Assembly: GCA_050253415.1 (NCBI GenBank) | Contig: JBFWJC010000001.1 | Span: forward strand, 384,001-448,000 | DNA length: 64,000 nucleotides | Source: Pedobacter sp. | Lineage (GTDB): Bacteria > Desulfobacterota > Desulfuromonadia > Desulfuromonadales > Syntrophotaleaceae | Direction of reading: 5' to 3' | Shown: piece after piece, positions 7,852 through 50,764 of the stretch | How positions within the stretch are numbered: position 1 is the stretch's first letter | Layout: every line of letters begins with the position of its first letter | Translations under genes and position numbers: made by a program | The notes under the pieces: model-generated | The model's input: only the letters and a program-made list of their open reading frames with translations | Told to the model about the DNA's origin: nothing | The model's database searches: none

Positions 7852-9573
7852 ATGACCCTTAGCGATCTTATCGTCCACTATCTTGAACAGTTCGGCGTGG
7901 AATATGTTTTCGGCATTCCCGGTAGTCCGCTTGGTCCCCTGTTCGATGCCCTCAAACGTAGCGAACAGCGTGGCGGGCCGCGCATGGTGCTGACGCGCCA
8001 TGAAGCCGGCGCGGCTTTCATCGCCGACGGTTATGCCCGCGAAAGCGGCAAGCTAGGGGTATGCTGCGCCACCACCGGCCCCGGGGCCACCAACCTTATT
8101 ACCGGGGTGGCTTCCGCTTATGCCGAACAGGTGCCGATGCTGGTCATCACCCCCCAGACCCGCTTGCGCGATCTGGGGTTCGGTTGTTTTCAGGATTCGT
8201 CGCGCAACGGTATCGATACGGTGAGCATGTTCGAGCCATGCACCGTTTACAATGCCAGCGTGACCCATCCCCACCAGTTGGAGAGAAAGCTGACGGCGGC
8301 ACTGACCGCAGCTTTCGGTACACCGAGGGGCCCTGCCCATCTGTGTATCCCCATCGATGTTTTTGCTGCCGAGGCTGAAGTACCGCTGCAATTTCCCCAT
8401 TTGAGGGAACTGCTCGAACGTCCCCGGGCGTTCCTGGATACCCGTGGTGTAACGAGCTTGTGCGAAGAGGTTTCCGGTGCGCTGAATCGCGGTGCCAGAC
8501 TCTGCCTGCTGGCCGGCCATAACAGCATCGGTGCGGGTCGCGAAATCGAAAGGTTTGCGGAGTTGACCGGGGCGTCCCTGCTTACCACACCGCGCGGCAA
8601 GTCGGCCATCAACCCCTACCATCCCCGGGCCCGTGGTGTGTTCGGCATGGCCGGACACAGTTCGGCCCGTGCTGCGCTGGCGGATGAGCAGGTCGAACTG
8701 ATCCTGGCCGTCGGCACCAATCTGGGCGAATGGTCGACCTGCAAGTGGGACCCGGTGCTCATGAACCATAAACTGGTGCACATTCATAATGACCGCCGCT
8801 GTTTCAGCCGGTCCCCCATGGCTCGCCTGCAGGTGGAAGGGGATATTGCCGCTCTGTTCACGCAGCTCAACACCTGCCTGGAAACGTTGCAACACGAAGG
8901 GCGACTGACCCTGCGCAATGCCGGGATGGGTTCTGTGGCGGCTGCAGCCGAGAGCTACCTGCCGGCAGGTATCACCGTTAACAAACCGGCCTGTTGCGAT
9001 ACGGTGCGTAGCGATGCGCCGATCAAGGCTCCCCAGGTGTATGCCGAGTTGATCCGGCGGTTGCCGCAGGAAACCCGGTTTTTTATCGATAACAGCAACA
9101 GCGTGCCCTGGTCGATCCACTACTTTTTCCACCCCCGACCGGAGAACTATCATCTGTCCATCGAATTCGCCACCATGGCCTGGGCGGTGGGCGCTGCAGT
9201 CGGTGGCGCTTTCGGTAACCGCCAGGCGCCGTCGGTGTGCCTGGCCGGAGACGGATGTTACCTGATGAGCGGCCAGGAGATCACCGTGGCGGTGGAAAGG
9301 CAGTTGCCGGTTATTTTTGTGGTGCTCAACGATCAGGGTTACGGGCTCATCAAGCACGGACACCGGCTTGCCGGCAAGGAGCCGGTCGACTTTTCGATTC
9401 CTCCGGTCGATTTTGCCATGATGGGTCGCGCGGCCGGTGCCGATGCCCAGACCATCCGCAGCATGCGGGACTTCGACAATCTGGACTGGCAGGCTCTGGC
9501 CAGCCGTCAGGGACCGACGTTGCTGGAGGTCATTATCGACCCCGAGGAACAACCCACTATCGCCATGTCCTGA
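7852..9573 (+). CDS. Thiamine diphosphate-dependent enzyme (acetolactate synthase large subunit-like)
   Basis: VFGIPG, RHEAGAAFIADGYAR, TTGPGATN and GDG...ND ThDP motif; GGAGG upstream of ATG 7852. Confidence 0.85.
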   Translation: MTLSDLIVHYLEQFGVEYVFGIPGSPLGPLFDALKRSEQRGGPRMVLTRHEAGAAFIADGYARESGKLGVCCATTGPGATNLITGVASAYAEQVPMLVITPQTRLRDLGFGCFQDSSRNGIDTVSMFEPCTVYNASVTHPHQLERKLTAALTAAFGTPRGPAHLCIPIDVFAAEAEVPLQFPHLRELLERPRAFLDTRGVTSLCEEVSGALNRGARLCLLAGHNSIGAGREIERFAELTGASLLTTPRGKSAINPYHPRARGVFGMAGHSSARAALADEQVELILAVGTNLGEWSTCKWDPVLMNHKLVHIHNDRRCFSRSPMARLQVEGDIAALFTQLNTCLETLQHEGRLTLRNAGMGSVAAAAESYLPAGITVNKPACCDTVRSDAPIKAPQVYAELIRRLPQETRFFIDNSNSVPWSIHYFFHPRPENYHLSIEFATMAWAVGAAVGGAFGNRQAPSVCLAGDGCYLMSGQEITVAVERQLPVIFVVLNDQGYGLIKHGHRLAGKEPVDFSIPPVDFAMMGRAAGADAQTIRSMRDFDNLDWQALASRQGPTLLEVIIDPEEQPTIAMS

Positions 9574-9588
9574 CAGGCCCGAATGTTC

Positions 9589-9621
9589 AACGAGGCAGAC
9601 GGTTCACCCGTCTGCCTCGTT
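9589..9621. terminator. Hairpin between convergent ThDP-enzyme and psiE genes
   Basis: AACGAGGCAGACGG-TTCAC-CCGTCTGCCTCGTT, perfect 14-bp stem. Confidence 0.65.
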
Positions 9622-9659
9622 TCCCTCACCGATGTTTACCGCCTTATTTGCCGTCAACC

Positions 9660-10103
9660 TTACGATGAAGACTGCTGCGTTTCTTCACTATCGCCTGGAC
9701 TGAAACGAATAGCCAGCGTACGTACAATACCCAGGGCCAGTATCAACAGGCTGAACCCGGCCATGGTGGATGCGGAGGTGCTGTGCTGCCGGTAAAGCCC
9801 CAGGATCATTTCCCGAATGACAATGACGATGGCCGGATCCATCATGGAATGCAGGCGGATGCGGTGATCCTTGAAGTAATCAATAAAACTGCGAAACAGT
9901 TCAATAATTACCAGGAAATTGAGGATTTCTGCGACGACTCCGGTAAAGGCCCCACCGATGGGACCCCATGAGAGCAGGTCCCTGATGGTGAATACTGTTC
10001 TGCCCAGGCCGATGACCAGTACCGCTACGATATAGACAATCAGGATGTTGACAATATATTGCAGCGATCGATCAAAAATCGGTATCCATTGGCAACGGTG
10101 CAT
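9660..10103 (-). CDS. Phosphate-starvation-inducible PsiE family membrane protein
   Basis: About 4 hydrophobic segments; IIELFRSFIDYF...AIVIVIREMI pattern. Confidence 0.75.
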   Translation of the reverse strand: MHRCQWIPIFDRSLQYIVNILIVYIVAVLVIGLGRTVFTIRDLLSWGPIGGAFTGVVAEILNFLVIIELFRSFIDYFKDHRIRLHSMMDPAIVIVIREMILGLYRQHSTSASTMAGFSLLILALGIVRTLAIRFSPGDSEETQQSSS

Positions 10104-10390
10104 GGTGCCTCGGCTTTCGTGTTGTTTTTAATGGTTTCGTTTCCACCGAAGGTGTCATTATGCCCTGGTTGCAACAGGCAGGTGTAAGCAGTCGGTCAGT
10201 TTTCGGTAAGTGGTTCGGGCTGGTGCATTCCTCCGCAATAAATCCTTTCCCTTTAATGGTTCCCTCCTTATAATAAGCAACCGCCAATCCTTTTGTTGTT
10301 ACGCACAAGGCAAAGGCCTCCTTGCGGAAGTCTTTATGAACCGTTGTGAGAAATTGGCACCTCCCCGTAACAGACACGCAAGGATCCCTC

Positions 10391-11410
10391 ATGCCCCAAT
10401 GTAAACTTTGGCCGATGTGCAAGCCCCGCATTCACTTGATCAATCCGTTCTTCAACGCTGCCGGTGGCTCGGAATGGCGCACGCTGGAATTGGCCCGGCA
10501 ACTTGCGCCCTATGGCCGGGTGCGTATATGGTCTGACCGTCCGCCCGATCCGCGTCTGGCGCATCTTCCCATTCGGTTGATCGAACCGAAAAAATTACGC
10601 TTCCCTGTGGGGGGGACGCTGATTTTCGTGGGGGCCTTTCAGAAACCGGGACGATGGATCAAGTGGAGCCACCCCCATCGGGTTGTGATTCTGGCCAATA
10701 CCTTGTGCCAGTTAAGTCTCGATAACATGATGAGCCGCATTCAACAGCGGACAGGTAGAACTCCCGAGGTGGTTTTTGCCTCGAGCTGGCTGGCCAAAGC
10801 AATGGGACATCAGGTGCGTGTCCACCCTTCTCCCATCGATTTGCATCGTTTTTGTCCTGGAACCGGCAGCCCATCACCTCGCCCTTTTACCATCGGACGC
10901 CACAGCCGCGATACCCTCGAAAAACACGCGATTGGGGACCCTGAACTTTATCGGCGGTTGTTAGCAGACGGCACCAGGGTGCGCATCATGGGGGGAACTT
11001 GCCTGGCCGACTTGCTGCCCTCCGATCGGTCCCTTGAGTTGCTGCCGACACTGGCAGAGCCGGCTGAAGAATTTTTAAGGGGGCTGGACTGCTTTTTCTA
11101 TCGCACCGGTCCTTTGTGGCGGGAACCTTTTGGGCGGGTGGTGCTGGAAGCCATGGCGTGCGGTCTGCCGGTGGTATGCGAAAGGCGTGGCGGATACAGT
11201 GAATGGATTCGTCACGGTGAGAACGGCTTTCTTTTCGAGAAACAGGAAGAAGCCCAGAATATTCTGCAAACGCTCAAACAGGATGCCGAACTGCGCAGCC
11301 GTATCGGTAAGGCGGCCCGTCATAGCGTTGAAGAAATTTATTCCCCGGAGGCTATGCGGCAGCAGGCGGCTTGGTATTGTGCAGGCGATCAGGGGTGGGG
11401 GCAGGAATGA
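10391..11410 (+). CDS. Glycosyltransferase family 4 (GT-B), copy 1
   Basis: GGSE N-terminal motif and EPFGRVVLEAMACGLPVV; start uncertain (10391 or 10415). Confidence 0.85.
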   Translation: MPQCKLWPMCKPRIHLINPFFNAAGGSEWRTLELARQLAPYGRVRIWSDRPPDPRLAHLPIRLIEPKKLRFPVGGTLIFVGAFQKPGRWIKWSHPHRVVILANTLCQLSLDNMMSRIQQRTGRTPEVVFASSWLAKAMGHQVRVHPSPIDLHRFCPGTGSPSPRPFTIGRHSRDTLEKHAIGDPELYRRLLADGTRVRIMGGTCLADLLPSDRSLELLPTLAEPAEEFLRGLDCFFYRTGPLWREPFGRVVLEAMACGLPVVCERRGGYSEWIRHGENGFLFEKQEEAQNILQTLKQDAELRSRIGKAARHSVEEIYSPEAMRQQAAWYCAGDQGWGQE

Positions 11411-12402
11411 TTTTTTCAACAGCCGCAGACGGGAACCCCCCCCTGGTTCATCTTATCAATCCCTTTTTGGATGCTGCTGGCGGTGCCGAGTGGGAAACCC
11501 TGCAACTTTATGAGGAATTGCGGCAATATGCGAAGGTGCGACTCTGGTCGGATCGTGCCCCCGATCCACGCTTGTCACATTTCCCCATTCGCATGATACA
11601 GCCGGCACGTTTCAGGTTTCCTTTCGGAGGGATCCTGGTGTTTGTCGGCGCTTACCAAAAATGCCGATCCTGGTTGCGTTGGTGTCGGCCCCGTCGCGTG
11701 ATCGTTCTGGTCAACACAACCTCCCACCACGATCTGGATCGGATACTGACGCGCCTGGGGATAAGCGGATTGCCACATCCCGAGTTGGTCTTCGTGTCAC
11801 GCTGGCAGGCTGATTTCATGGGACGGGAGGGCGTTATTCACCCATCCCCCATCGATCTTGAGCGTTTCCGTCCCCAACCAGAGAGGCCCGGTGATGGCGT
11901 GTTTACCATCGGCCGGCATAGTCGCGATACACTGGAGAAACACCACTTGCACGACCCGCAATTTTATCGTGACCTGGTCCAGGCGGGCAACCGGATCCGC
12001 ATTATGGGGGGCACCTGTCTCCCAAAGGCGTCACTGCCGCAACAAGGGTGCGAAATCCTGCCGACCATGAGCGAGCCGGCAGAGGATTTTCTACGCAGTC
12101 TGGATTGCTTCTTTTACCGGACCAGTCCTCAGTGGCATGAGCCGTTTGGCCGAGTGGTGTTGGAGGCCATGGCGTGTGGTCTGCCGGTGGTGTGCGAACG
12201 GCGAGGCGGATACAGTGAATGGATTACCGACGGCAAAGATGGGTTTTTATTCGATACCGTGGCGCAGGCCCGCACCATTCTGGCCCGGTTAAAGGAAGAT
12301 GCCCCTTTTCGCGCCAAGGTAGGCAAGGCGGCGCGCATTACGGCGGAAAATATTTATTCTGCACAAAATATGAGGCAGCGTCTGGCTTTTTACTATACCT
12401 GA
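11407..12402 (+). CDS. Glycosyltransferase family 4 (GT-B), copy 2
   Basis: Paralog of the upstream gene with the same motifs; ATGA overlap with the upstream stop. Confidence 0.85.
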   Translation: MIFSTAADGNPPLVHLINPFLDAAGGAEWETLQLYEELRQYAKVRLWSDRAPDPRLSHFPIRMIQPARFRFPFGGILVFVGAYQKCRSWLRWCRPRRVIVLVNTTSHHDLDRILTRLGISGLPHPELVFVSRWQADFMGREGVIHPSPIDLERFRPQPERPGDGVFTIGRHSRDTLEKHHLHDPQFYRDLVQAGNRIRIMGGTCLPKASLPQQGCEILPTMSEPAEDFLRSLDCFFYRTSPQWHEPFGRVVLEAMACGLPVVCERRGGYSEWITDGKDGFLFDTVAQARTILARLKEDAPFRAKVGKAARITAENIYSAQNMRQRLAFYYT

Positions 12403-12480: not shown

Positions 12481-13821
12481 TTAGTCGCAATCCGCCACCA
12501 TTCCAACCTTGTTATCCAGATACACTTTTCGGCGTCGCCACAGATAAAACGGCAGGCCGGCCAAGGTAATCAGGATGCCGAGCAGCGAAAGCCCGGGATT
12601 GGTCCAGCCGATCTGCACCAGGATGCACAGATAGGCGGTCACGAAAACCAGCGGTACCAACGGGTAGCCCCAGGTGCGATAGGGGCGCGGGGCATGCGGT
12701 TGCCGCCGGCGCAAAACGAACAGCGCCACGCCGCTGGCTATGCTGGATAACACCATGACAAACACAACGTAGCTCAGCAGCTGGTCGAAGGTGCCGAGCA
12801 GTACCAGCAGGCAGGCCAGAACCGCTTGAATCAGCACGGCACAAGCCGGAGTTCGGTAAAGAGTGTGAACCTCCTTCAGGCAGGACCAGAAAACCCCATC
12901 CTCCCCCATGGCAAAAGAAACCCGCGCACCGGTCATGATGGTGGCGTTGATGCCGGCTGCAATCGCCAGCACGATGGGGATCGAAACAAGTCCAGCTATG
13001 CCAGATCCGTAAAGCCTGACCATGGCGGCCTGGGCGACGTTGACCACGTTATTCAGTTCGGCCATGGGCAGGGCGAGCAGGTAAACCAGGTTGATCAGAG
13101 TGTAGATCAGCGTCACACTCAGGGTTCCCAGGATCAGTGACAGGGGCAGGTTGCGCTGGGGATTTTGGATTTCGCTGCCCATGTAGGCCGAGGCGAACCA
13201 GCCGCTGTAGGTAAAGATGACCGCGATCATGGGGGTGGCGAACAGCCTGCCAGGGTCCGGTTGCACTGCACCGGCCGCAGACAGATGCCGCCAGTCGCCA
13301 CCTCCGGCCACAAAGCCGGCGACGATCAAAACCAGCAAGGTTAGAATGGTGCCGAGGGTGAAAACATTCTGGGTCGTGCCGCTCAGGCGGATGCCCCGGT
13401 AGTTGATCAAGGAAAACAGCAGGATAAACGCCATTGCCATGAACTGCTTGTCTGCCTCCCTCAGAAACGGCAGGAAAATTTTCAGATAACTGACCAACCC
13501 GATGGCCAGCGCGGCGATGGATCCGGGGTTGATCACCCAGAACAGTACCCAGCCGAGCAGAAAACCGGCCCAGGGGCCATAGGCGGCTTTCAGGTAATGA
13601 TAGTCGCCGCCGGCCTTGGGGTACATACCGGCCAGTTCGGCATAGGTCAGGGCCCCGCAGATGGTCAGCAGGCCGCCCAGCACCCATATGCCGAGGAACA
13701 TCCAGGGGTGGGGCAATTCCCTCGCCAGAAAACCGCTGGTGGTAAAGATCCCGGCCCCGATGACGTTACCGATGATCAACAGGTAGGCATCTCCCAGGTC
13801 GAGCCGACGATTCAGTTGCAC
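12481..13821 (-). CDS. APC family amino acid/polyamine permease
   Basis: IGAGIF TM1 motif, YAELAGMYPKAGGDY, FTYSGW, RPYRTWGYP; GTG start overlaps the end of the upstream gene. Confidence 0.9.
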   Translation of the reverse strand: MQLNRRLDLGDAYLLIIGNVIGAGIFTTSGFLARELPHPWMFLGIWVLGGLLTICGALTYAELAGMYPKAGGDYHYLKAAYGPWAGFLLGWVLFWVINPGSIAALAIGLVSYLKIFLPFLREADKQFMAMAFILLFSLINYRGIRLSGTTQNVFTLGTILTLLVLIVAGFVAGGGDWRHLSAAGAVQPDPGRLFATPMIAVIFTYSGWFASAYMGSEIQNPQRNLPLSLILGTLSVTLIYTLINLVYLLALPMAELNNVVNVAQAAMVRLYGSGIAGLVSIPIVLAIAAGINATIMTGARVSFAMGEDGVFWSCLKEVHTLYRTPACAVLIQAVLACLLVLLGTFDQLLSYVVFVMVLSSIASGVALFVLRRRQPHAPRPYRTWGYPLVPLVFVTAYLCILVQIGWTNPGLSLLGILITLAGLPFYLWRRRKVYLDNKVGMVADCD

Positions 13822-15482
13822 GCTGCGTTTCCTTCCGCCAGGCATGAGCCTATGTAGATCAGGCCGAGCATCTTTTCCTTTTGGTCCTGCGCGGCTTTGC
13901 GCATCTCGCCAAGGGTGATGGATATCTGGTGTTCGCGGCTACGGATGCCGGCGGCATAGACCAGCCGCACCGGCGTATTATCGGCAAAATGGGTCCGTAG
14001 CAACGATTCGAGTTCCGGCACATCCTGCAACCCCATGAAGATGGCCAGGGTGTCGCCGTTTTTCGCTACGGCCGCAAGGAGTTCGTCGTTGCGACGCAGA
14101 CCGCGCGGCGCGGTAATCACGGTGGAGCCGTTGGCGCTGATATCGCGGTTGATAACCGCATTGGCGGCATTAAGGGAGCTGAGCCCGGCCACGGTTTCGA
14201 TTTCGGCCTCATCCAAATATTCCCTGATCCAGCGGGAACTGCCGTAAATCATCGGGTCGCCCCAGTCGAGAAATGCCACGTTCTTCCCCGCATCCAGTGC
14301 CTTGCGGATCTTGCCTGCATTGGTGCGCCACTCCTCTTGCCGCAACCGGTCCCGTTCCGTCTCGGACAGGGGTGTTTTGCGGTCACGATCCGCAAACGCA
14401 AACGGATCGAACAGCACCTCCTTGCCGCTGAGGTAAGTGGCGAAGCGTTTTTGTATATCCCCCGGTACCGCAATGGCATCGGCCCGTGCCAACGCCGAAA
14501 GGGCTTCGAGGGTGATCTGGCAGGTGTCGCCGGCGCCGACGCCGATCACGGTCAGCTTCGGGACATGCCGGGGGCGCAGCACCTCGATGGATGCCACGTC
14601 GCGCACGAAACGGCTGGCAGACGAATCGGGCAGCACCAGCCATCGTGCATGCTTTTCTCCAAGGGGCTGGCCGCCCATGCGGTCAGCAAGCAGAATCCGC
14701 CGACCGAGGGGCGACCAGAACAATTCCCCGTAGGACAGCAGCGATCGATAGCCATCACGAGATCGGACCAAAAAGACGGTTTGGGGTTCCGCGCCCACCC
14801 CGGCCTGTTTCAAAATATCCACCAGCGGCGTACCGGAAAAACGCTTTACGCCGTCAAAACGGGTGCCGTTCCAGACGATCTTGGTAGTGACTTCAGAGAT
14901 CGATTGGTTGGGTCGTTTTGCCAGTGATACGGGCTGTATCGCGGCATCCCGTGTCGGATCGATCACCTCGATGCTGACGATATCGGTCAGGCAGCGGTCG
15001 CTGTAAAAGTCGTTGCCCAGCACCAGGCGTGGCAGGACGAGCGGTTTTGGTACTAGCGTGGGAGTCTCTTTGGTATATATCGGTGTTGCGGAAAAGGCGA
15101 TGATCACATCGGCCGGACGACCATACGCCACCTCCGCCCACGACAACAGGGTGCGTTGGCCTTGACGATTACGCACCACAAGGGCGAGGTCGATGGCCTT
15201 GGGGAAGGTTCCACCTTCTTTTTCCACTCCGGCAGCCTGCAAAAGATATTGCAGAGGTACGCCCTGGTAGCGATAGACACCATGAAAGGTATTCTGGGTG
15301 GCGACCTCGGTGGTGCGGACCTCCACCGTCCGGTAGTTGGCCAAGTCCTTCAGGGTCAGGCGCTGGGGGTGCTTGACCAGACCGGTGATCGTGACTACCG
15401 GTTCGGCTGCTGCCTGGCAGACAGTGAGTCCGCAGGTAAAAAATAGATACGAAATTACCAGCAATAACCGCAGGTATTTCAT
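13812..15482 (-). CDS. Exported protein: two sulfite-oxidase-like (Oxidored_molyb-type) repeats fused to a tetrapyrrole methylase domain; no CxxCH
   Basis: Sec-type signal peptide; ITGLVKHP..LTLKDL, YQGVPL and SRDGY repeats; C-terminal IGVGAGD..ITLEAL..ADAI and FLDWGDPMIYG. Confidence 0.75.
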   Translation of the reverse strand: MKYLRLLLVISYLFFTCGLTVCQAAAEPVVTITGLVKHPQRLTLKDLANYRTVEVRTTEVATQNTFHGVYRYQGVPLQYLLQAAGVEKEGGTFPKAIDLALVVRNRQGQRTLLSWAEVAYGRPADVIIAFSATPIYTKETPTLVPKPLVLPRLVLGNDFYSDRCLTDIVSIEVIDPTRDAAIQPVSLAKRPNQSISEVTTKIVWNGTRFDGVKRFSGTPLVDILKQAGVGAEPQTVFLVRSRDGYRSLLSYGELFWSPLGRRILLADRMGGQPLGEKHARWLVLPDSSASRFVRDVASIEVLRPRHVPKLTVIGVGAGDTCQITLEALSALARADAIAVPGDIQKRFATYLSGKEVLFDPFAFADRDRKTPLSETERDRLRQEEWRTNAGKIRKALDAGKNVAFLDWGDPMIYGSSRWIREYLDEAEIETVAGLSSLNAANAVINRDISANGSTVITAPRGLRRNDELLAAVAKNGDTLAIFMGLQDVPELESLLRTHFADNTPVRLVYAAGIRSREHQISITLGEMRKAAQDQKEKMLGLIYIGSCLAEGNAACN

Positions 15483-15509
15483 TGCAACCTCTCTTTCAAA
15501 TAATATAAA

Positions 15510-15553
15510 GGGCAGGTTCGCGACAGATCATCCCCGTTGTCGCGAACCTGCCC
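15510..15553 (-). terminator. Intra-operon 16-bp hairpin, terminator-like on the minus strand
   Basis: GGGCAGGTTCGCGACA / TGTCGCGAACCTGCCC, followed on the minus strand by TTTATATTATTT. Confidence 0.6.
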
Positions 15554-15609
15554 CTGCTTATCCACTGGCCGTGTTGCTTGCGCTCCGGATGAAGCGTGTT
15601 ATGCCCGGT

Positions 15610-17412
15610 TTAATGGCACTCGCCGAACCGCACATTCAGGCGCGGCCCCATGTAGATCAGGCCGAGGAATTTTTCCGGTTCGGCTGCCAGGTGGGCCGCC
15701 GCTTGTTGCAGGGTGGTGCGTACCAGGCGTTCACTGCCTGCGACGCCGGCACTGTAGACCAGGTTGACCGGAGTCTCGGCGGAATAATGGCTGTCAAACA
15801 AGGGTTGCATGTCCTGGAATTCCTTCAATCCCATAAAGATGGCCAGGGTATCGCCGCTTTTTGCCAGGGCGGCAAGCAACTGCGGATTTTGTTTCAGACC
15901 GCTCGGCACGGTGATGACCACCGATCCTCCGGCTCCGACGTCGCGCTGGATCATGGCATTGGCCACGTTGAAGGCACTCAGGGCGGGGATGGTTTCGAGC
16001 TGGTCGTCGCTGAAGAAGGCCCGGATCCAGCGGGTGCTGCCGTAGATCATCGGATCGCCCCAGTCCAGAAATGCGACGTTTTTCCCCTCCTTCAGCGCCT
16101 GGCGGATTTTGGCCACCCCCGCCTCGCGTTGCAGGCTGCAGCGTTTATCCGCCTCGGCCGGTGTTAGCTCCGGGTGGGATTTGCGATACATGTGCTGGAT
16201 GAGCACCAAGGGGTCGAACAGCACCGGTTTGTCGCCCAGGTAGGGGGCATAGCGCTTGGCGATATCCGCCGGGGCTACCAGCACGTCAGCGCGCGCCAGG
16301 GCGCCGATAGCCTCCAGGGTGATCAGATCGGTATCACCCGGCCCCACGCCGATGATGGAAATTTTTGCCGCCGGTTTCAGGTCGACGACCTCGATACGCG
16401 CGACGGCCAACACATCCCGATCATCGACCAGTTCCTCGGGTACGATAATGCGGTATTTCCCGCCGCGCTGACCTTCCAGAGTTTTGCCATTGTCACTTTC
16501 GGCGATCATGATGCGCCGGCCCTTAAAGGACTGGAACAGTTCGCCGAAGGAAAACAATGCCCGGTATCCGTCCGGGGCGGAGATCATCACGGCTTTGGTC
16601 AGTTGCTCACCGGCGCCGGCCGCCTCAAGAATCTTGGCCAGAGAAATGCCTTTGTAGCGGTGCAGGCCGTGGTATCCCATATGCACGCCGACGACCTTCT
16701 TCATCATTTCCATACGAGGGTAGTCTTTGAGGTCGGACAGTTTCAGTTCTTTGGCCACCGCACCGGTCACCCGGATTTCCCCGGATTCAAGCTTGGCCGC
16801 ACGATCGACCTTGAGTTTGGGATACAGATCGATGACCTCGATGCGGGTAACGTTTTCCAGGCAACGGTCGGTGTAAAAGTCGCCGCTGAGCAGCAATTTG
16901 GGCATGCCTGCCGGGCGGTCGTATTCGATAAGGGACTTCCGGTAGATTTCCGGGCCGTGGCATTTTAGGCAGCGATCCTCGGTCATCATCGGCTTGACCG
17001 GGGTGGCGGCAAAGGCGATGGTCACTTCGGTGGCATTGCTATAGTAGACTTCGCCCCAGGACAGCACCACCTGCTTGCCGGAAGCATCGGTCACCCGGAT
17101 GGCCAGATCGATCGGTTTTTCAAACGGCTGGTCCTGTTTGACGATTTCAGCCATGTCCAGCAGGGTGCGCAGCGGTACGGCTTTGTGCAGATATACGCCA
17201 TGAAACTTGCCGTCTCGGCTGACCTCGTTGAGCTGAATCTCTACCGACTGAAAGCGGGCCAGATCGTCGGTGGATAATTTGAGGGGGCGTTTGACCTCAC
17301 CGGTGATGCTCATGACCCCTTGTGAAGCCGTCTGCTGATCGGCCGCCAGGCTTTGATGAAAGGCCGGCAAAACAGCCAGTAACGTAAGCAGGGTAACGGC
17401 CATGCGTTTCAT
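15610..17412 (-). CDS. Exported monoheme c protein: sulfite-oxidase-like repeats, CxxCH motif and tetrapyrrole methylase domain
   Basis: Signal peptide MKRMAVTLLTLLAVLPAFHQSLAA; CLKCH; IGVGPGDTDLITLEA and FLDWGDPMIYG; ATG at 17412 overlaps the upstream stop. Confidence 0.78.
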   Translation of the reverse strand: MKRMAVTLLTLLAVLPAFHQSLAADQQTASQGVMSITGEVKRPLKLSTDDLARFQSVEIQLNEVSRDGKFHGVYLHKAVPLRTLLDMAEIVKQDQPFEKPIDLAIRVTDASGKQVVLSWGEVYYSNATEVTIAFAATPVKPMMTEDRCLKCHGPEIYRKSLIEYDRPAGMPKLLLSGDFYTDRCLENVTRIEVIDLYPKLKVDRAAKLESGEIRVTGAVAKELKLSDLKDYPRMEMMKKVVGVHMGYHGLHRYKGISLAKILEAAGAGEQLTKAVMISAPDGYRALFSFGELFQSFKGRRIMIAESDNGKTLEGQRGGKYRIIVPEELVDDRDVLAVARIEVVDLKPAAKISIIGVGPGDTDLITLEAIGALARADVLVAPADIAKRYAPYLGDKPVLFDPLVLIQHMYRKSHPELTPAEADKRCSLQREAGVAKIRQALKEGKNVAFLDWGDPMIYGSTRWIRAFFSDDQLETIPALSAFNVANAMIQRDVGAGGSVVITVPSGLKQNPQLLAALAKSGDTLAIFMGLKEFQDMQPLFDSHYSAETPVNLVYSAGVAGSERLVRTTLQQAAAHLAAEPEKFLGLIYMGPRLNVRFGECH

Positions 17413-18176
17413 GATTTTTGTCCTCCGTTGCGAATCTTGCGAATTTGCGGAAAGTACCAGAGCATCAGCAGGCACAGGATCGTATTGCCGATCAGTATCA
17501 GCAACAGACCGGGATCCTTTTTAACGGTGATTTGAAGGGCCGGCAATACGTCAACGCCGGGTTTGCCGGCCATCCCCAGATGCAGGGTGTAGCCCTGCCA
17601 GTAAATTGGTTCGAGAATGGCGATCTGGCGTTGCACGACGTCGGTCCCGTGTTTCAGCTCCAGGGTGGCCGTGCATTGCTTCATGGTTCCCAAAAGAAGG
17701 GGTTCCCGCCAGTATTCGTAGTGGCGTTCGAGCAAGGTAACCTGAAGATCGTTCACGGTGACTTGTTCTCCGACCACGGCCGGCAGGCGTTGCTTGCTGC
17801 CAGTGAATTCGGTAAGGGCATGACCGCCGATAATAAACAAAAAGCAGAAGTGCATGATGGACGGAGCCAGCAGCAGTGCCAAGATGGCGCGGCGATGCTG
17901 ACCTCGGTGTTGCCAGAGCCAGGTCAGGCGTTGCAGGGTACAGGCGGCGGTATTCACGCCCAGCAGGAAAAGCAGGCCGAACAGCGAAAAGATCCACCAG
18001 TTCTGTATTCCGTTGTGGTGCATGATCCAGGAGGGAAAGAGTTGAGCGTTGAGTTTGCCGAATACCGGCATGTACCGGGTGTAAAAGCTACCGATAAATA
18101 GATTGACAGTCAGCAGGCACAGCAACCATAACGTCAGACGAATACTGGCCATGGACGTCCAGAGTCGTTTAATCAT
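17409..18176 (-). CDS. Short ResB/CcsB-like cytochrome c biogenesis protein
   Basis: ASIRLTLWLL, WW..LLGVNTAACT, H-xxFLFIIGG and KKDPG motifs; adjacent to the ccsA-like gene. Confidence 0.7.
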   Translation of the reverse strand: MIKRLWTSMASIRLTLWLLCLLTVNLFIGSFYTRYMPVFGKLNAQLFPSWIMHHNGIQNWWIFSLFGLLFLLGVNTAACTLQRLTWLWQHRGQHRRAILALLLAPSIMHFCFLFIIGGHALTEFTGSKQRLPAVVGEQVTVNDLQVTLLERHYEYWREPLLLGTMKQCTATLELKHGTDVVQRQIAILEPIYWQGYTLHLGMAGKPGVDVLPALQITVKKDPGLLLILIGNTILCLLMLWYFPQIRKIRNGGQKS

Positions 18177-19023
18177 TGCCGACCTCCGTCAGTTTGGAGT
18201 TGCGACAGGCATTCGGTACCGCCCCATGCACCTGCTGGGCTGCGGTAGCCTGAGTGTTGTTGCCGGAGGACTTGGCCGGATTAAGCACGGTAAGATGCGC
18301 CGCCACCTGCAGGGCGTAAGCCACAACCAGCACCACCAGTGCCCCGGACACCGCCCAGCGAGCTTTTTTGCGCAGGTCGAAGGCGCGGTCAAAGTGGGTA
18401 TGCAGGTAGCCGCAGTACAAACACCAGATGGCGGCGGATTGCAGATGCCGTTCTCCCCAGTGAAACGCCGCGCCCCAACCGAGATAACTCCAGACCGCAC
18501 CGATAACCTGGGCCAGGCTGTAAAAGATGAAGCCCCAGATCACCAGTTGGTTGAACAACGGATCGCCGTCGCGACGACGCAGATGGCGCCAGGCGAGCCA
18601 GCCACCGGCCAGGAAACAGGCGATGGCCAGCACTTCAAGGAAGAAAAACAAAGGGGAAGACCAGTTGGCGGTAAACGGTCCGGGTGGCGGAATCTGCACC
18701 GGCAGCGCCAGAGTGGTTAACATCGTCAGCGTCACCAGCCAGCTCAGAGAGGCCGCCTGTTGCCGCTGGCCGCGCCACAGGCATAATAGCGCCAACATAG
18801 CCAGGCACCAAGGCAGAAACAGCGCACCGTTAAAGACTCCGTCGAGGGAGAAAATCCCCCAGCGCCAGCAACGGCCGAGCTGGCTGGTGGTGTGCAGCAT
18901 AAATCCGAGCCCCAGCAGCCAGCATGAAAAACGAAACTTTTTCAGCAGATAAAAGATAAGGCTGCCGGCGTAAACGCCGGCAGCCACATTGAATAACATC
19001 GCGGAGGTAGTCGCTAAAGTCAT
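18169..19023 (-). CDS. CcsA/ResC-like cytochrome c biogenesis protein (divergent WWD domain)
   Basis: Multi-pass membrane protein with GAVWSYLGWGAAFHWGER and YLH; GAGG upstream of ATG 19023. Confidence 0.75.
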   Translation of the reverse strand: MTLATTSAMLFNVAAGVYAGSLIFYLLKKFRFSCWLLGLGFMLHTTSQLGRCWRWGIFSLDGVFNGALFLPWCLAMLALLCLWRGQRQQAASLSWLVTLTMLTTLALPVQIPPPGPFTANWSSPLFFFLEVLAIACFLAGGWLAWRHLRRRDGDPLFNQLVIWGFIFYSLAQVIGAVWSYLGWGAAFHWGERHLQSAAIWCLYCGYLHTHFDRAFDLRKKARWAVSGALVVLVVAYALQVAAHLTVLNPAKSSGNNTQATAAQQVHGAVPNACRNSKLTEVGND

Positions 19024-19065
19024 GCACAATCCCTCGTTGTGGAAGGTTCTGTTTTCATAACAGGA

Positions 19066-21069
19066 TCAGTAGGTGAAGTTGAGGCCGGCCAGGAAGTTGC
19101 GGCCGGGAGCCGGTTGACCGACCTCGTAATAATCACGATCGGTGATATTGTTGACTTCTACAAAAGCAGTCCCTTCCACCCCCAAGAGCTTGCCGAGTTT
19201 CTGCTCGGCCCGGGCATTGAGCAGCAGGAAGTCCGGGGACTGCGTCCACTCTTCAATAAGAGCAGTCGGAGTGTAAGTATTCTTATTAGCGTACTGCCGG
19301 TTTACATAGGAGAGTTGGGTACTGAGGTTGAGCCCGAAGGGGAATCGGTAGCGCAGGTCCAGATTGGCGCGATGGCGCGGCCTCCCTTCCAGCTCGCGGT
19401 CATTTTCCTTGTCTTCGGTGCGCATGTAGGTGTAATTCAGCCCGGCCCAGAACGCCTCGGTGATGTCGGCGCCCAAGGAAACCTCTATCCCTTTGGTGAC
19501 GGCCTCGCCGATATTGATATAAACCGTTTCGCCATCAATTTTATCCTTATCGATGAGGTCTTCGATGTCATTGTAAAAGGCCGCTACCGAAAGAGTTATA
19601 TCCTCGCCGAAGGCTTGGGTCAGGCCGACCTCATAAGTGATGGTTGTCTGGGGGTCGAGATCGGGGTTGCCGCCAATTAATTCGCTGTACAGCTCCTTGA
19701 GATGGGGGAAACGGGTTTTTTTGCCGATGGAGCCGTGGAGGGTAGTGCTCTCCGACAGAGTGATAACCACACCACCCTGGGGATTGATGGCATCGATAGC
19801 TTTCGTCAGCTCCCGACCGGTGGCTTCACGCGGATCGTAATAGTCGTAGCTTACCCCTACCACGAACGCGAGCCAGTCGAGAGGTCGCACCTCGTCTTCG
19901 ATCCCGATGGAGTAGGTATTCGCCGCAAAGGTCTCCCAGGGCGACCAATCGTTTTCATCTAGCGGTTCTTCTTTGTCCCGTTGTTTGGTTTCGTCTCGCA
20001 CAAACGAGCCACCGATCTTGAGGTAACTCCAGCGACCAAAGTCCATGAAAGCCTGCAGTTCACCGCCGGTGCTGTAATTTTCATAAGGGGATAATACATA
20101 AGGTTTCTTTAGACTTTTTGGATATTCACCAAATCGCCCATACATTTCGTCATCGTGGCTGACATAAAATGCGCGGGCTTTGAGCCGCAGCCAGTCGGTC
20201 ACCTGCTGCTCGCCAACCAGGCTCAATTGCCACTGCTCCCATTCGTTAAAACGCCACAGGGGCCGATTCGGCACCCCCTTCTCATTGTTGTAATAGTTGA
20301 AGGTCAGATAGAGTTTAGTCTCCTCGCTGGGCTCATAACCGAGTTTAAAATTGACATGGTGCTGCAGGTAATCGCTTCGATCCCGTTTGCCGCCATCTTC
20401 CGGTGCTTCCAGTTGGTCAGCCCACCAATCCTCATCATAATCGCTGGACAGCCGCCAGCCATTGGAATGGCGGTAGCTGTACCCGGCGTATACAGTGAAG
20501 TCGCCGATCGGAGCTCCGGCACTAACGGAATAGTGCTGGGTGCCGTAGTCACCCCAGGCAGTGCTGGCCGTGGCCATTGGTTTAGACGCGGTCTTGGTGA
20601 TGATATTGATGACCCCGCCCATGGCATTGGGCCCGTACAACACGGATGAGGCGCCTTTGGTGACGGTGATCTTGGCAACATTGTCGATGGGGAATTGGGC
20701 CAAGTCGATAAGACGTGAATATTGCTCGTAAACCGCCACACCATCGATCATTATCTTGACATCTTCACTATTAAAACCACGAATGCTGACGTAGCTTTCG
20801 CCCTTTTTGGAACCTCTCTGCACGAAAACGCCCGGCAATTGTTGCAACGCGTCGGCCACGGTCTGGGCGCCGCGCTGTTTAAAATCCTCCTCGGTTACTT
20901 CCGTAACAGTGGTGGCCAGATTGGCCACCTGTTTTTCCCCGCTGACGATAACCTCGCCCAGGGTAAATACGTCATCAGTGGCTACCTCCTCTGCCGCCAG
21001 CGCCGGCCAAGCTGCCAGTAAACAACCGGCCAGCACCCACGCCGACCACCAAATACGTGTTTTTGTCAT
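19066..21069 (-). CDS. TonB-dependent outer membrane receptor
   Basis: Signal peptide, TonB-box-like FTLGEVIVSG, plug motifs (SIRG, KGASSVLYGPNAMGGVINIIT), C-terminal PGRNFLAGLNFTY; AGGAGG RBS. Confidence 0.92.
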   Translation of the reverse strand: MTKTRIWWSAWVLAGCLLAAWPALAAEEVATDDVFTLGEVIVSGEKQVANLATTVTEVTEEDFKQRGAQTVADALQQLPGVFVQRGSKKGESYVSIRGFNSEDVKIMIDGVAVYEQYSRLIDLAQFPIDNVAKITVTKGASSVLYGPNAMGGVINIITKTASKPMATASTAWGDYGTQHYSVSAGAPIGDFTVYAGYSYRHSNGWRLSSDYDEDWWADQLEAPEDGGKRDRSDYLQHHVNFKLGYEPSEETKLYLTFNYYNNEKGVPNRPLWRFNEWEQWQLSLVGEQQVTDWLRLKARAFYVSHDDEMYGRFGEYPKSLKKPYVLSPYENYSTGGELQAFMDFGRWSYLKIGGSFVRDETKQRDKEEPLDENDWSPWETFAANTYSIGIEDEVRPLDWLAFVVGVSYDYYDPREATGRELTKAIDAINPQGGVVITLSESTTLHGSIGKKTRFPHLKELYSELIGGNPDLDPQTTITYEVGLTQAFGEDITLSVAAFYNDIEDLIDKDKIDGETVYINIGEAVTKGIEVSLGADITEAFWAGLNYTYMRTEDKENDRELEGRPRHRANLDLRYRFPFGLNLSTQLSYVNRQYANKNTYTPTALIEEWTQSPDFLLLNARAEQKLGKLLGVEGTAFVEVNNITDRDYYEVGQPAPGRNFLAGLNFTY

Positions 21070-21268
21070 AACTCCTCCTTGCAATAAAAATGGAATTTCC
21101 CTGACAGGCATGGGTTGCCTGCGGGAAACTCAGGGTTAGTCACACCTCTTACAGAAAACTTTTGGTAAAACATTCATCAAAATCCGAAAGCGACCAGGCG
21201 GGTTAAATCCGCCCGTCTCCAGCAATAAAATTAAAATTCTTTATCTAATTAAGTGTGATGTCTGAATT

Positions 21269-21292
21269 GGATATATTGCTGGGTACATAACG
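21269..21292 (-). promoter_or_regulatory. Putative ModE-type operator upstream of the TonB operon
   Basis: Minus strand CGTTATGT-N8-ATATATCC, preceded by CCTTG; closely matches the site at 47927. Confidence 0.55.
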
Positions 21293-21699
21293 CAAGGCGT
21301 CTCAAATTGCGGATGTGCCGCATTGCCATAGATTCATGGGGGAGAATCGAAGTATTTATGAAGTTGGGTGGATATGGAAGGCAGGAAAGAGCCGCAAGAC
21401 TTGCGACCGCCTCTAGGAGGAAAGACGGTGCAAGACTCTCGCAAAATTTTTCCCAGCTTTCGCTGTATAGCAAACGGAATAACGCCATGCAAGTAAAAAA
21501 GCATTTTAAGTTTAATTATTTAATGTATACCTTGACGAATTCCCAATTCGGCATTCCCATGGCGGGACGGACAGGGGGCTCCGGATCATGCAAGGGTCCT
21601 ATGCCCACCGATAGATCATAAAACGCCAGGATGTTGCAGCATCCTGTGTGTTGCCTGCTACAATCGTAGAAAATGCAGCGCGAGACGAAAGGATGTCCC

Positions 21700-22056
21700 A
21701 TGACCCAAAAAGGTTACCTGTGGATGACGACATTGTTGGTGGTGACGGTGCTGCTTGCCGCCTGTGCGGGCAGGATGGCGGCGCGGTCGCTTCTGGATGA
21801 GGACTATGCCGTCATGAGCGATGAAGAATTATTGGTGTATTACGACCAGGTAAGTGAAGCGATCGCAAAGGAAGAAGGCGGAGGGGGTGGTTTCGGTCTG
21901 GGGTTGGGGCTCGGGGTTGGCAGCGGTTCGTTTTCGGTGGGTGCCAGCCAGGGGATGTATGTGGATGATCCGACCGAGCAGTTGCGAGTCCGACGCAATC
22001 AGGTGCGTCTTGAGTTGGCCAGACGAGGTCTGCAACCCCAAGGCACGCCGCAGTAA
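21700..22056 (+). CDS. Small lipoprotein with Gly-rich segment
   Basis: Lipobox LAAC after a hydrophobic signal; GGGGGFGLGLGLGVGSG segment. Confidence 0.75.
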   Translation: MTQKGYLWMTTLLVVTVLLAACAGRMAARSLLDEDYAVMSDEELLVYYDQVSEAIAKEEGGGGGFGLGLGLGVGSGSFSVGASQGMYVDDPTEQLRVRRNQVRLELARRGLQPQGTPQ

Positions 22057-48391: not shown

Positions 48392-48394
48392 GTT

Positions 48395-48482
48395 GCGCTA
48401 ATTTCGACCTCTGCCTGATCAACAGACCTAACGAAACCCGCACCCAATACCAAAATCAATGGTATTGGTGCGGGTTTTTTTT
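48395..48482 (+). ncRNA. Conserved attenuator-like cis RNA element, copy 1
   Basis: GCGCTaATTTCGaCCTCTGC..CAGACcTAaCGAAACCCGCA-[stem]-TGCGGGTTTTTTTT; repeated at 50681. Confidence 0.6.
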
Positions 48483-49011: not shown

Positions 49012-49431
49012 ATGAAAGTTTGCTTTCCTATATCAGAAGATTTTGGTGTGAAAAGTACTGTTTATGGACATTTCAATTCTGCCCCTTTCTTTCTTGTCGT
49101 AGATACCGATACAAAGGAAACCCTGACTATAGCTAATTGCGATCCAAAAAATCCTTTAGCAGGGTGCGATCCATTCAGTGCTCTTAAGGTTTACGATATC
49201 GATGGTATTATTGCCGGATGTATGGGAGATAGTGCTCTTCAAGCCATGAACCTCTGCGGGTTCCGGGTATATGAGGCAGAATCCGAAAATCTTATTGAAA
49301 ATATGGAACTGTTTAACCAAGAGAAGCTTCAGGAAAGCGTCGTGCAAAATAGTGCTGCCGAGGGAAGATGCTCTGATGGCGAAAGTTCTTCAGGCGAGGG
49401 TTGCGGTCACGATCATGATCACGAGCTTTGA
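49012..49431 (+). CDS. NifB/NifX family (dinitrogenase Fe-Mo cofactor-binding fold) protein
   Basis: MKVCFP..VYGHFNSAPFFLVVD; Cys/His-rich tail GCGHDHDH; AAGGAG RBS. Confidence 0.8.
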   Translation: MKVCFPISEDFGVKSTVYGHFNSAPFFLVVDTDTKETLTIANCDPKNPLAGCDPFSALKVYDIDGIIAGCMGDSALQAMNLCGFRVYEAESENLIENMELFNQEKLQESVVQNSAAEGRCSDGESSSGEGCGHDHDHEL

Positions 49432-50650: not shown

Positions 50651-50680
50651 CTTCCCTCTACATAAAAAATAAATAGTCAC

Positions 50681-50764
50681 GCGCTTATTTCGTCCTCTGC
50701 TTAGTCAGACTTAGCGAAACCCGCATCGATTCCTGAAATTCAGGATATCAATGCGGGTTTTTTT
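50681..50764 (+). ncRNA. Conserved attenuator-like cis RNA element, copy 2
   Basis: GCGCTtATTTCGtCCTCTGC..CAGACtTAgCGAAACCCGCA-[stem]-TGCGGGTTTTTTT, ending about 18 nt before the next ATG. Confidence 0.62.

Follow-up and report, generated by a model that had tools for sequence, protein, structure and literature searches.

Gene organization of the locus

We analyzed a 64,000-nucleotide stretch of Pedobacter sp. DNA, here called the window (positions 384,001 to 448,000 of contig JBFWJC010000001.1, assembly GCA_050253415.1, placed by GTDB in the Desulfobacterota, family Syntrophotaleaceae), with a focus on two adjacent genes whose products we name MT1 and MT2. Both products consist of a signal peptide, two repeats with a truncated sulfite oxidase (SUOX) fold, and a C-terminal class III methylase (TP_methylase) domain. 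The two genes lie in a run of six on the minus strand, which encodes a TonB-dependent receptor, a CcsA-like protein, a ResB-like protein, MT2, MT1, and a permease of the amino acid-polyamine-organocation (APC) superfamily that resembles L-type amino acid transporters (LAT). The CcsA-like and ResB-like genes overlap by 8 nt, the ResB-like and MT2 genes by 4 nt, and the MT1 and permease genes by 34 nt; the gap between MT2 and MT1 is 127 nt. Based on these overlapping or close ends, the six genes are read as one operon.

The TonB-dependent outer-membrane receptor has 681 aa at its longest open reading frame (ORF; 19066..21111, minus strand, as for all six genes), with Plug (PF07715, 100 bits) and TonB_dep_Rec_b-barrel (PF00593, 149 bits) domains. 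Its likely true start is the ATG at 21069, preceded by GGAGGA, as judged from alignment with the related locus L005. Among solved structures, its best match is E. coli BtuB (E 6e-30), with the similarity concentrated in the plug, and the receptor falls below the cut-off of every NCBIfam subfamily model for haem, siderophores, or B12. Next come a divergent CcsA-like, putatively haem-handling membrane protein of 286 aa (18169..19029; Cytochrom_C_asm, PF01578) and a short membrane protein of 255 aa (17409..18176), labelled ResB-like from its position and N-terminal membrane segment. MT2 (15610..17412, 600 aa) lies in a frame that is open from 15610 to 17475, and the start at 17412 agrees with the N-termini of its homologues. 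MT1 (13812..15482, 556 aa) shares the architecture of MT2 without the CXXCH loop described below; the two are paralogues with 41% identity over their full length. The domain plan attributed to these two ORFs in a preliminary description of the sequence is present, and Pfam, AlphaFold2 (AF2), and internal alignment together bear it out. The last gene encodes the APC-superfamily (LAT-like) permease (12481..13845, 454 aa; AA_permease_2, PF13520, 196 bits).

A promoter and terminator scan gave no usable signal above shuffled expectation. A permissive RNA scan of the receptor leader (21000-21750) returned a single chance snoRNA match (E 0.54). The leader shares 83% identity with its counterpart in L005, too near a relative for RNA structure to be judged.

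The methylase domain

The class III domain occupies residues 350-600 of MT2 (15613..16365) and residues 309-556 of MT1 (13815-14558). The TP_methylase model PF00590 (cut-off 27.8 bits) matches residues 350-571 of MT2 with 134 bits and residues 309-527 of MT1 with 139 bits, and these matches span positions 1-211 of the 212 in the profile. In the full-length AF2 model of MT2 (pLDDT 89.4, pTM 0.84), the domain has the two-lobed alpha/beta fold of CbiF/CobA. Foldseek, run as the preliminary description had suggested, placed CobM/CbiF structures at the top (3ndc, 4e16, and 1cbf, E 3e-14 to 1e-12), with 2ybq and 1s4d reaching to 8e-12; overall, the matches comprise CobM/CbiF, CysG, NirE, SUMT, CbiL, and CobJ at E 3e-14 to 2e-10. 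In a HMMER alignment to CbiF (2cbf), the GxGPGD, GDPxxYG, and P-x-S/T stretches are retained. The GxGxGD and GDPxxYG motifs already noticed in both proteins read GVGAGD or GVGPGD, and GDPMIYG; together with P-G/A-x-S, we take these motifs to be the S-adenosylmethionine (SAM) site of class III methylases. Across 120 listed homologues, GDPxxxG is kept in 112 and GxGxGD in 89.

The scores against pathway-specific models are low. The best NCBIfam equivalog match is cobI_cbiL for MT1 (79 bits, cut-off 163) and cobM_cbiF for MT2 (80.5 bits, cut-off 260). Because all equivalog scores lie far below the cut-off and four other TP_methylase genes stand elsewhere in the genome, the sequences argue that MT1 and MT2 are not ordinary precorrin methyltransferases, a case that the preliminary description had raised against itself. 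In a quick tree of methylase domains, MT1 and MT2 are sisters (Shimodaira-Hasegawa-like approximate likelihood ratio test, SH-aLRT, 97); three of the four cytoplasmic methylases of the genome fall outside the exported group (SH-aLRT 92), and the fourth, on a long branch, falls inside it, so that the relation to the cytoplasmic enzymes is not settled by this tree and no claim of monophyly is drawn.

A search with MT2 in a representative library of 1.84 billion proteins gave 1612 matches at E ≤ 1e-3, 94 of them at E ≤ 1e-30. Among the best 150 of the 1612, we found full-length proteins, proteins of 330-380 aa made up of the repeats only, stand-alone and tandem TP_methylase proteins, for which our heuristic called a leader in 24 of 30, and fusions of DUF4198 with TP_methylase, the last confirmed with Pfam in three (P0223, P0247, and P0266). 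Since the exported methylase fold is used in several architectures, it is treated here as a family of its own. Both Pfam domains are carried by 119 of the 120 listed homologues, in which the leaders and the 300-aa N-terminal module are conserved. Databases name homologues 'precorrin-2/-4 methylase', and the clusters that an ESM Atlas search with the methylase domain gave were all either unnamed or labelled generically as TP_methylase. The record of one homologue is named 'molybdopterin-binding tetrapyrrole methyltransferase, one heme-binding site, putative'; the phrase 'molybdopterin-binding tetrapyrrole methyltransferase' was not found in our search of the open literature library.

Several variants were seen in related loci. 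Exported proteins with two TP_methylase domains in tandem are encoded in L071 (4459-6156), L072 (3492-5171), L073 (3513-5174), and L074 (4274-5980). The two checked with Pfam (L071 and L074) score 263-271 bits, and motif I of the first domain is partly degenerate. All four genes adjoin an APC permease gene, and three of the four also a TonB receptor gene. In L064 (9409-11194, minus strand), the architecture is split into adjacent genes for a 316-aa repeat module with CXXCH and a 282-aa methylase; this locus also has a second stand-alone exported methylase (307 aa) after a TonB gene.

The sulfite oxidase-fold repeats

The N-terminal part holds two like repeats in both proteins, at residues 29-346 of MT2 (16375..17328) and about 23-306 of MT1 (14563-15416). 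The Oxidored_molyb model PF00174 (cut-off 24 bits) covers them partially, with 43.9 bits in two stretches of MT1 and 47 bits in one stretch of MT2 (212-344); the AF2 model and the internal alignment bear out the pair of repeats that had been read from the sequence. AF2 modelled residues 29-346 of MT2 from a 38-row alignment with pLDDT 94 and pTM 0.91. Against the PDB, Foldseek gave SorA as the top match of this module (2ca4, E 8.5e-8), with chicken sulfite oxidase (1sox) and YedY (1xdq/1xdy), the comparison with MsrP/YedY having been proposed beforehand. These matches (E 1e-7 to 1e-5) cover only one third of the chains, with target-normalised TM-scores of about 0.3 (SorA, 0.31). The small secreted protein PruR is covered far more fully, almost over its whole length, with PruR-normalised TM-scores of 0.76 for 7kom (root mean square deviation, rmsd, 2.9 Å), 0.71 for 7kos (rmsd 2.6 Å), 0.71 for 7kp2, 0.70 for 7kou, and 0.68 for 7rkb.

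Each repeat has only about 150 aa. In profile alignments to SorA and YedY, the Mo-ligand Cys corresponds to V or K in the consensus 'LNEVskd', and the hairpin that follows this position is deleted, in line with the earlier remark that no Cys stands there. No Cys is invariant or 90% conserved in the family alignment. The Cys of a DFYxDRCL stretch, which had been described as kept, is variable: 60 of the 120 homologues have C there, 43 have S, 5 have Y, and one each has N, T, F, or A, with no match in 8. It was rejected as a conserved ligand. Repeat 2 contains a nearly invariant DGYR that repeat 1 lacks. The consensus further includes ADRW, whose Trp place is D in MT2 and F in MT1; a PW motif, which PruR has in place of the Cys, was not seen in the sequence alignments.

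According to the consulted part of its description (PMC11194511), PruR is a secreted, truncated SUOX fold that lacks the Mo-ligand Cys and its hairpin, cannot take molybdenum cofactor (Moco), since the truncation removes the Moco cleft, and binds a pterin in the periplasm. On the strength of the structural models, repurposing as binding modules is the best reading of the repeats in MT1 and MT2. The suggestion that the folds had been repurposed in this way thus finds in silico support for the repeats in the Foldseek matches to PruR (TM-scores 0.70-0.76).

Export and the candidate haem-c site

The MT leaders, MKYLRLLLVISYLFFTCGLTVCQA/AAEP and MKRMAVTLLTLLAVLPAFHQSLA/ADQQ, look Sec-type, with a basic n-region, an uncharged hydrophobic core, and AxA. 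They correspond to residues 1-24 of MT1 (15411-15482) and to residues 1-23 of MT2 (17344..17412, ending in ...SLA/AD), the latter called from the sequence and the family heuristic. Leaders were called across 141 full-length homologues with a crude heuristic of our own and a loose twin-arginine pattern. Leaders were Sec-like in 125, and the twin-arginine pattern occurred in one, which agrees with the Sec-type signals without a twin-arginine motif first noticed in the two proteins. Most of the 16 misses of the heuristic are N-terminally truncated or have P/Q in the core.

MT2 carries a candidate covalent haem-c site, CLKCH (residues 148-152; 16957..16971), in a loop inserted into the first repeat; MT1 has none. 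Outside the MT1 clade, 73 of 93 homologues have a CXXCH at that place, as do 20 of 29 repeat-only proteins; it is absent from all 27 MT1-clade proteins (P0001-P0027), which by their sequences have lost the loop. Covalent haem c attachment occurs only outside the cytoplasmic membrane, on Sec-exported apoproteins. The conserved CXXCH therefore points to the periplasm and not to twin-arginine translocation (Tat) of a Moco-loaded protein. In the related locus L068, one gene (9003-10796, plus strand) fuses a TupA-like PBP_like_2 domain (119.5 bits) to two SUOX-fold repeats with CNKCH. Collectively, the leaders, the conserved CXXCH, the TonB/CcsA-like operon, and the relatives fused to periplasmic binding-protein domains support the export of MT proteins, as predicted from sequence.

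The CcsA-like protein matches PF01578 with 33.9 bits (cut-off 29.9) and the CcsB model TIGR03144 with 41.7 bits (cut-off 187.6). Its Trp-rich motif 'GWGAAFHWGERH' and the next His, in 'YLHTH', align with the WWD region and the LH of the canonical CcsA of this genome; compared with the latter, a long loop is deleted and the WDPKE core is replaced by HWGERH. The canonical CcsA and ResB genes lie at C4:152658-154816, and the canonical ResB scores 270 bits. The 255-aa ResB-like protein has no match in Pfam (including the ResB model PF05140) or NCBIfam; homologues in the equal position are present in L001, L002, L005, L010, L011, L049, L050, L054, L064, and L066. Because the pair also accompanies MT proteins without CXXCH (L002 and L054), its role is not simply haem attachment to MT, and cytochrome synthesis as its sole role was weakened as a candidate. 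The haem handling is therefore not explained by the haem site of MT alone, and a tetrapyrrole cargo stays in play.

Gene company in related genomes

The comparison covered 33 loci. Besides the window, these were 12 taken from named genomes and 20 regions drawn from a sample of 401 genomes of the phylum. MT presence was called at E ≤ 1e-40, and neighbours were identified by phmmer with Pfam- or NCBIfam-checked queries. MT was found in 33 of the 401 genomes, including its own (32 of 400 others), and in records from Spirochaetota and Nitrospirota; none of 13 genomes of the same order or class gave a match at E ≤ 1e-40. A TonB-dependent receptor is present in 21 of the 33 loci, and many have ExbB/ExbD/TonB sets; the proposal that MT acts on an imported compound fits this company. 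CcsA-like genes occur in 16 loci, TupA-like or ModA binding proteins in 11, a chelate-type importer (Peripla_BP_2/FecCD/ABC) in 7, DUF364, FmdE, and a lipoprotein of the cytidine-deaminase fold in 5 each, and a regulator joining helix-turn-helix (HTH) and PBP_like domains in 4. The six loci with stand-alone methylases that were found later have no CcsA-like gene.

For the PBP_like_2 proteins, the TupA model NF041772 is the sole NCBIfam match (87-252 bits, under the cut-off of 400), and the SBP_bac_11 proteins match the ModA model TIGR01256 with 202-204 bits (cut-off 62.5). The genome of the window holds about ten ModA/TupA-type genes in 4.1 Mb, which corresponds to a chance of about 4% per 16-kb neighbourhood; 11 of 33 is therefore a clear excess, with the reservation that the loci are not independent. 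L001 and L002 share the gene order of the window, and there a ModA gene follows the permease. In L068, the TupA-like/repeat fusion is followed by a ModE-type HTH protein, a TupA-like substrate-binding protein, a permease, and an ABC ATPase, with a TonB receptor on the other side. As a detail of L068, the TupA-like domain reads ATGSPGE where the usual TTTS stretch, which we take to be a significant motif, stands. The consulted portion of a study of DUF364 (PMC2954201) links this family, by context, to chelators resembling pterins or flavins and to the transport of tungstate, molybdate, vanadium, and iron.

The five deaminase-fold proteins are encoded on the plus strand directly 3' of MT, in L003 (8835-9545), L006 (11752-12441), L007 (2439-3140), L008 (11812-12546), and L009 (11787-12497). 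They have lipoprotein leaders (..AGCEH), intact HAE and PCxxC zinc motifs, and no NCBIfam match. Their sequences point to a periplasmic deaminase, perhaps acting on a pterin or purine-like ring.

The permease and the methylase fold

The best NCBIfam match of the permease is the L-type amino acid transporter model TIGR00911, with 207 bits (cut-off 701.8). Permease genes are present in 17 of 29 loci with a methylase-bearing MT and in none of the four repeat-only loci (L065-L068). In the reverse direction, the permease was searched in the 401 genomes, and the neighbours of matches of at least 326 bits, from 16 genomes besides its own, were inspected. An exported TP_methylase gene stands beside the permease in 12 of the 16: six are known MT loci, and six are new (L071-L075 and L078), four of these being tandem methylases without SUOX repeats, and most of the new six have a TonB receptor. 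The four permease loci without an exported methylase are L069, L070 (a 4.6-kb contig), L076, and L077, whose genome has an MT elsewhere. The permease goes with the methylase fold, whatever this fold is fused to. Since the permease tracks the methylase fold, the simplest reading is that it supplies or removes something that the methylase domain needs; since the SAM motifs of the domain are kept, SAM would be the compound supplied, with S-adenosylhomocysteine (SAH) taken in return. Transporters of the LAT type work by exchange, and the APC family includes a eukaryotic SAM importer, the yeast permease Sam3. The preliminary description had objected that SAM is not normally supplied to the periplasm; by gene linkage, the permease offers a candidate answer.

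Other features of the window

The operon is flanked on the receptor side by a small lipoprotein-like ORF (21673-22056, plus strand), divergent from the receptor gene, with a lipobox LLAAC, a Gly-rich middle, and no Pfam family; L005 has a 91% identical counterpart in the equal position. A full-length paralogue of elongation factor G (EF-G) with all five EF-G domains (22066-24135, minus strand) stands alone adjoining the operon. Convergent with the permease gene are two tandem paralogous glycosyltransferases of family GT4 (354 and 343 aa; 10346-12402, plus strand), adjoined by a PsiE-family protein (9660-10103).

Farther along, a 793-aa ORF (33421-35802, plus strand) joins NuoB, NuoC, and NuoD (Oxidored_q6, Complex1_30kDa, and Complex1_49kDa) at the head of a nuo operon, and the AT skew drops to between -0.2 and -0.4 across 40-48 kb, the site of the nuo membrane subunits. 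Two Moco-II RNA motifs (RF01713; cut-off 35 bits) were found at 48394-48441 (43.1 bits) and 50680-50724 (45.9 bits), both on the plus strand, in a low-GC stretch (41-44% GC, 48-52 kb). They lie upstream of a small Nitro_FeMo-Co-like protein (49012-49431) and a MoCF_biosynth gene (50783-51817), respectively, and the latter is followed by an aldehyde oxidoreductase of the XDH family (51882-54737). At 58829-63760 (plus strand), genes for a radical SAM protein with an HMPTM zinc ribbon, an AMP-binding enzyme, XdhC, and a MobA-like/HD protein stand together, and by sequence the group resembles a cluster for Moco maturation. A ModA-type gene lies just past the end of the window (C1:448542).

A proposed role in metal uptake

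From the domains, folds, export signature, haem motif, operon, and co-occurrence obtained in silico, we infer SAM binding, the role of the permease, the cargo, and catalysis as follows. We tentatively propose, at a confidence that stays somewhat short of even, that MT1 and MT2 are the periplasmic cargo-handling component of a TonB-dependent uptake system for trace metals, probably tungsten or molybdenum chelates, with the permease supplying SAM. Both proteins would be exported via Sec and would work in the periplasm within this system. Their N-terminal PruR-type module may bind a small planar, pterin-like or oxyanion-bearing ligand, and the c-type haem of MT2 would permit electron transfer to the bound cargo. 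The class III domain has most likely kept its use of SAM, with which it would modify either the cargo brought in or the chelator of that cargo. The permease, whose gene is translationally coupled, in turn most likely exchanges SAM and SAH, or another amino-acid-type co-substrate and product, across the inner membrane, and SAM/SAH exchange would make periplasmic methyl transfer feasible. The divergent CcsA-like/ResB-like pair would deliver haem. The genes that accompany MT in relatives make a trace-metal complex the most likely cargo, tungsten or molybdenum being the best candidate, and the released oxyanion would pass to Tup/Mod ABC importers.

A bolder form of this proposal, which we regard as a long shot, holds that periplasmic SAM-dependent methylation alkylates the metal-binding groups of an imported pterin-type tungsten or molybdenum complex and so frees tungstate or molybdate for TupABC/ModABC, with a dedicated LAT-type SAM/SAH exchanger. 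The PruR-like, haem-bearing module would then hold a pterin-like 'tungstophore' or a scavenged cofactor of molybdenum or tungsten. Were this so, it would be the first periplasmic SAM economy in bacteria, the first TonB-dependent pathway for tungsten or molybdenum chelates or for cofactor salvage, and the first release of a metal from its chelator by methylation, not by reduction or hydrolysis.

Several observations weigh against a role in tungsten or molybdenum uptake with SAM supplied by the permease. The operon of the window has no Tup/Mod gene of its own, the nearest ModA-like gene being about 50 kb away, and no Tup/Mod binding protein was found in 22 of the 33 loci. Loci from related genomes are not independent, and the counts therefore overstate the support. 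The permease is missing in 12 of the 29 methylase-bearing loci. Among these are the 'type B' loci (L003 and L006-L009), which combine DUF364, Peripla_BP_2, FecCD, and ABC genes with MT and the lipoprotein deaminase and have no APC permease; their chelate-type importer would equally suit haem, siderophores, or corrinoids, and CobO adjoins one of them (L006). We know of no bacterial APC-family SAM transporter. Motif I (GxGxGD) is missing in 31 of 120 homologues and reads GMGTSPD in some stand-alone forms. The CcsA-like/ResB-like pair beside MT proteins without CXXCH points the same way, as does the Rfam search at gathering threshold, in which neither a cobalamin nor a Moco riboswitch was detected in the operon of the window or in any of the 32 related loci.

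Alternative explanations

The strongest alternative, still unlikely in our judgment but to be taken seriously, is the capture of tetrapyrroles: the receptor would import haem or a corrinoid, the exported methylase fold would hold or modify the macrocycle, the CcsA-like/ResB-like pair would handle haem, and chelate-type ABC importers would take the product in. The TP_methylase fold normally binds tetrapyrroles, BtuB is the best solved relative of the receptor, and the CcsA-like genes, some of them beside MT proteins without CXXCH, the Peripla_BP_2/FecCD/ABC importers, the single CobO, and an energy-coupling factor (ECF) CbiQ component in L010 all agree with this explanation. There are parallels as well, since exported CbiK homologues take part in haem uptake (IhtB of P. 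gingivalis and CbiK-P of D. vulgaris). It does not, however, account for the Tup/Mod proteins, the TupA-like/repeat fusion, FmdE, the DUF4198 fusions, or an amino-acid permease that tracks the methylase domain; the lack of a cobalamin riboswitch in the 33 loci tells against it too, and the receptor is under the cut-off of the haem, B12, and siderophore models alike. The same permease linkage could be explained without periplasmic chemistry if the methylase fold merely held SAM, or an adenosyl or amino-acid-type nutrient from the receptor, and handed it to the APC permease for import. The minimal recurrent trio of receptor, exported methylase-fold protein, and APC permease (L071, L073, L074, and L075) suits this idea, as do the degeneration of motif I in part of the family, including loss of its Asp, and the yeast importer Sam3. 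Nevertheless, we consider it distinctly unlikely: to our knowledge, APC transporters do not use soluble binding proteins; the haem, the PruR-like repeats, the Tup/Mod link, and the DUF4198 fusions are left unexplained; and GDPxxxG in 112 of 120 homologues together with the match to the whole 212-position profile fits a preserved active cleft as well as mere binding.

Two further explanations start from the repeats. A periplasmic pterin sensor or carrier like PruR, whose repeats bind an excreted pterin and which regulates or answers a signalling pathway, would share with PruR the fold, the export, and the missing Mo-ligand Cys, so far as the consulted part of PMC11194511 describes them. We hold it to be very unlikely, since the annotated neighbours in the 33 loci include no GGDEF/EAL partner of the DcpA type, the company consists of transport genes, and PruR is a single domain of 135-150 aa with neither haem nor a methylase domain. 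Scarcely credible is a true SorAB-type molybdo- or tungsto-enzyme that loads scavenged Moco in the periplasm and passes electrons to its own haem c, even though a SUOX fold with haem is the classical layout of sulfite dehydrogenases, SorA is the top Foldseek match, and TonB receptors and tungsten or molybdenum genes lie nearby in relatives. The Mo-ligand Cys and hairpin are missing, the repeat of about 150 aa reaches a SorA-normalised TM-score of only 0.31, the heuristic finds no Tat signal, and truncation of the PruR type reportedly leaves no Moco cleft (PMC11194511, consulted in part). Finally, the database names would suggest ordinary cytoplasmic precorrin or sirohaem methyltransferases with mis-called starts. 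This is almost certainly wrong and already contradicted by the equivalog scores far under the cut-off, by leaders and an N-terminal module conserved in 119 of 120 homologues, by the conserved CXXCH, by the TonB and not cob/cbi context, and by the four other TP_methylase genes of the genome.

Comparison with known systems

Periplasmic proteins with Moco-type folds are expected to arrive folded via Tat, and SAM-dependent enzymes are expected to be cytoplasmic. The MT family departs from both expectations in a conserved manner. An active methylase domain would mean that bacteria methylate compounds in the periplasm, a kind of chemistry for which no one has searched. A tungsten or molybdenum complex as the cargo would make the system the missing high-affinity route for these metals in sulfidic habitats, where syntrophs and metal reducers depend on tungsten and molybdenum enzymes. 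Even a minimal reading is useful, as annotators can stop naming these genes 'precorrin methylase'. In the open literature library, we found no description of an exported class III methylase fold or of its fusion to a haem-bearing PruR-like tandem, nothing on an APC permease or Tup/Mod company belonging to such a methylase, and, by title and the start of the abstract, no TonB-dependent molybdenum or tungstate system of this kind.

Compared with CbiF/CobM and with CobA/SUMT, CysG, NirE, and CbiL, the C-terminal 250 aa share the fold (target-normalised TM-scores 0.70-0.81), and, like class III methylases in general, MT1 and MT2 match the whole PF00590 profile and keep GxGxGD, GDPxxYG, and P-x-S. 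Unlike the CbiF/CobM group, they are predicted to be exported, are fused to a SUOX-fold module that bears a putative haem in MT2, score below every equivalog cut-off, and are encoded in TonB uptake operons with an APC permease and not in cob, cbi, or cys operons. The repeats resemble PruR of Agrobacterium, Vibrio, and Klebsiella (7kou, 7kos, 7kom, 7kp2, and 7rkb), which likewise is secreted, has a truncated SUOX fold (about 140-150 aa), and lacks the Mo-ligand Cys, according to the consulted part of PMC11194511. In contrast to PruR, the domain is duplicated in MT, has the inserted CXXCH loop in MT2, is fused to a methylase, and keeps company with transport genes instead of a DcpA-type c-di-GMP enzyme. 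PruR sandwiches its pterin between a conserved Tyr and Trp, with a hydrogen bond from Asn; repeat 2 of MT has a conserved DGY, and the consensus ADRW has D (MT2) or F (MT1) at its Trp place. With SorAB and sulfite oxidase, the top fold matches, MT2 shares the combination of a SUOX-fold domain and a probable haem in an extracytoplasmic protein. Unlike SorAB, MT2 lacks the Mo-ligand Cys, a Tat signal, and the dimerisation domain, its SUOX domain is truncated, and its haem would sit on the same chain, in an inserted loop.

IhtB and CbiK-P offer a further analogy, in that a fold of the cytoplasmic tetrapyrrole pathway has moved to the periplasm beside a TonB-dependent receptor. In MT, however, the fold is that of a class III methylase, additional PruR-like and putative haem modules and an APC permease are present, and the company is Tup/Mod instead of iron or haem. 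The CcsA-like gene recalls NrfI/CcsA1 of Wolinella, where an extra divergent CcsA-type gene stands beside one haem protein and the canonical CcsA/ResB elsewhere; here, by contrast, the CXXCH is ordinary, the pair also accompanies MT proteins without it, and the ResB-like protein is half size and matches no model. None of the domains is new in itself: PruR is a precedent for a secreted SUOX fold without the Cys, and CbiK-type proteins are one, by analogy, for the export of homologues of B12-pathway enzymes encoded next to TonB receptors. The system is best compared with TonB-dependent uptake that includes a periplasmic cargo-processing protein, with a real chance that its chemistry is categorically new.

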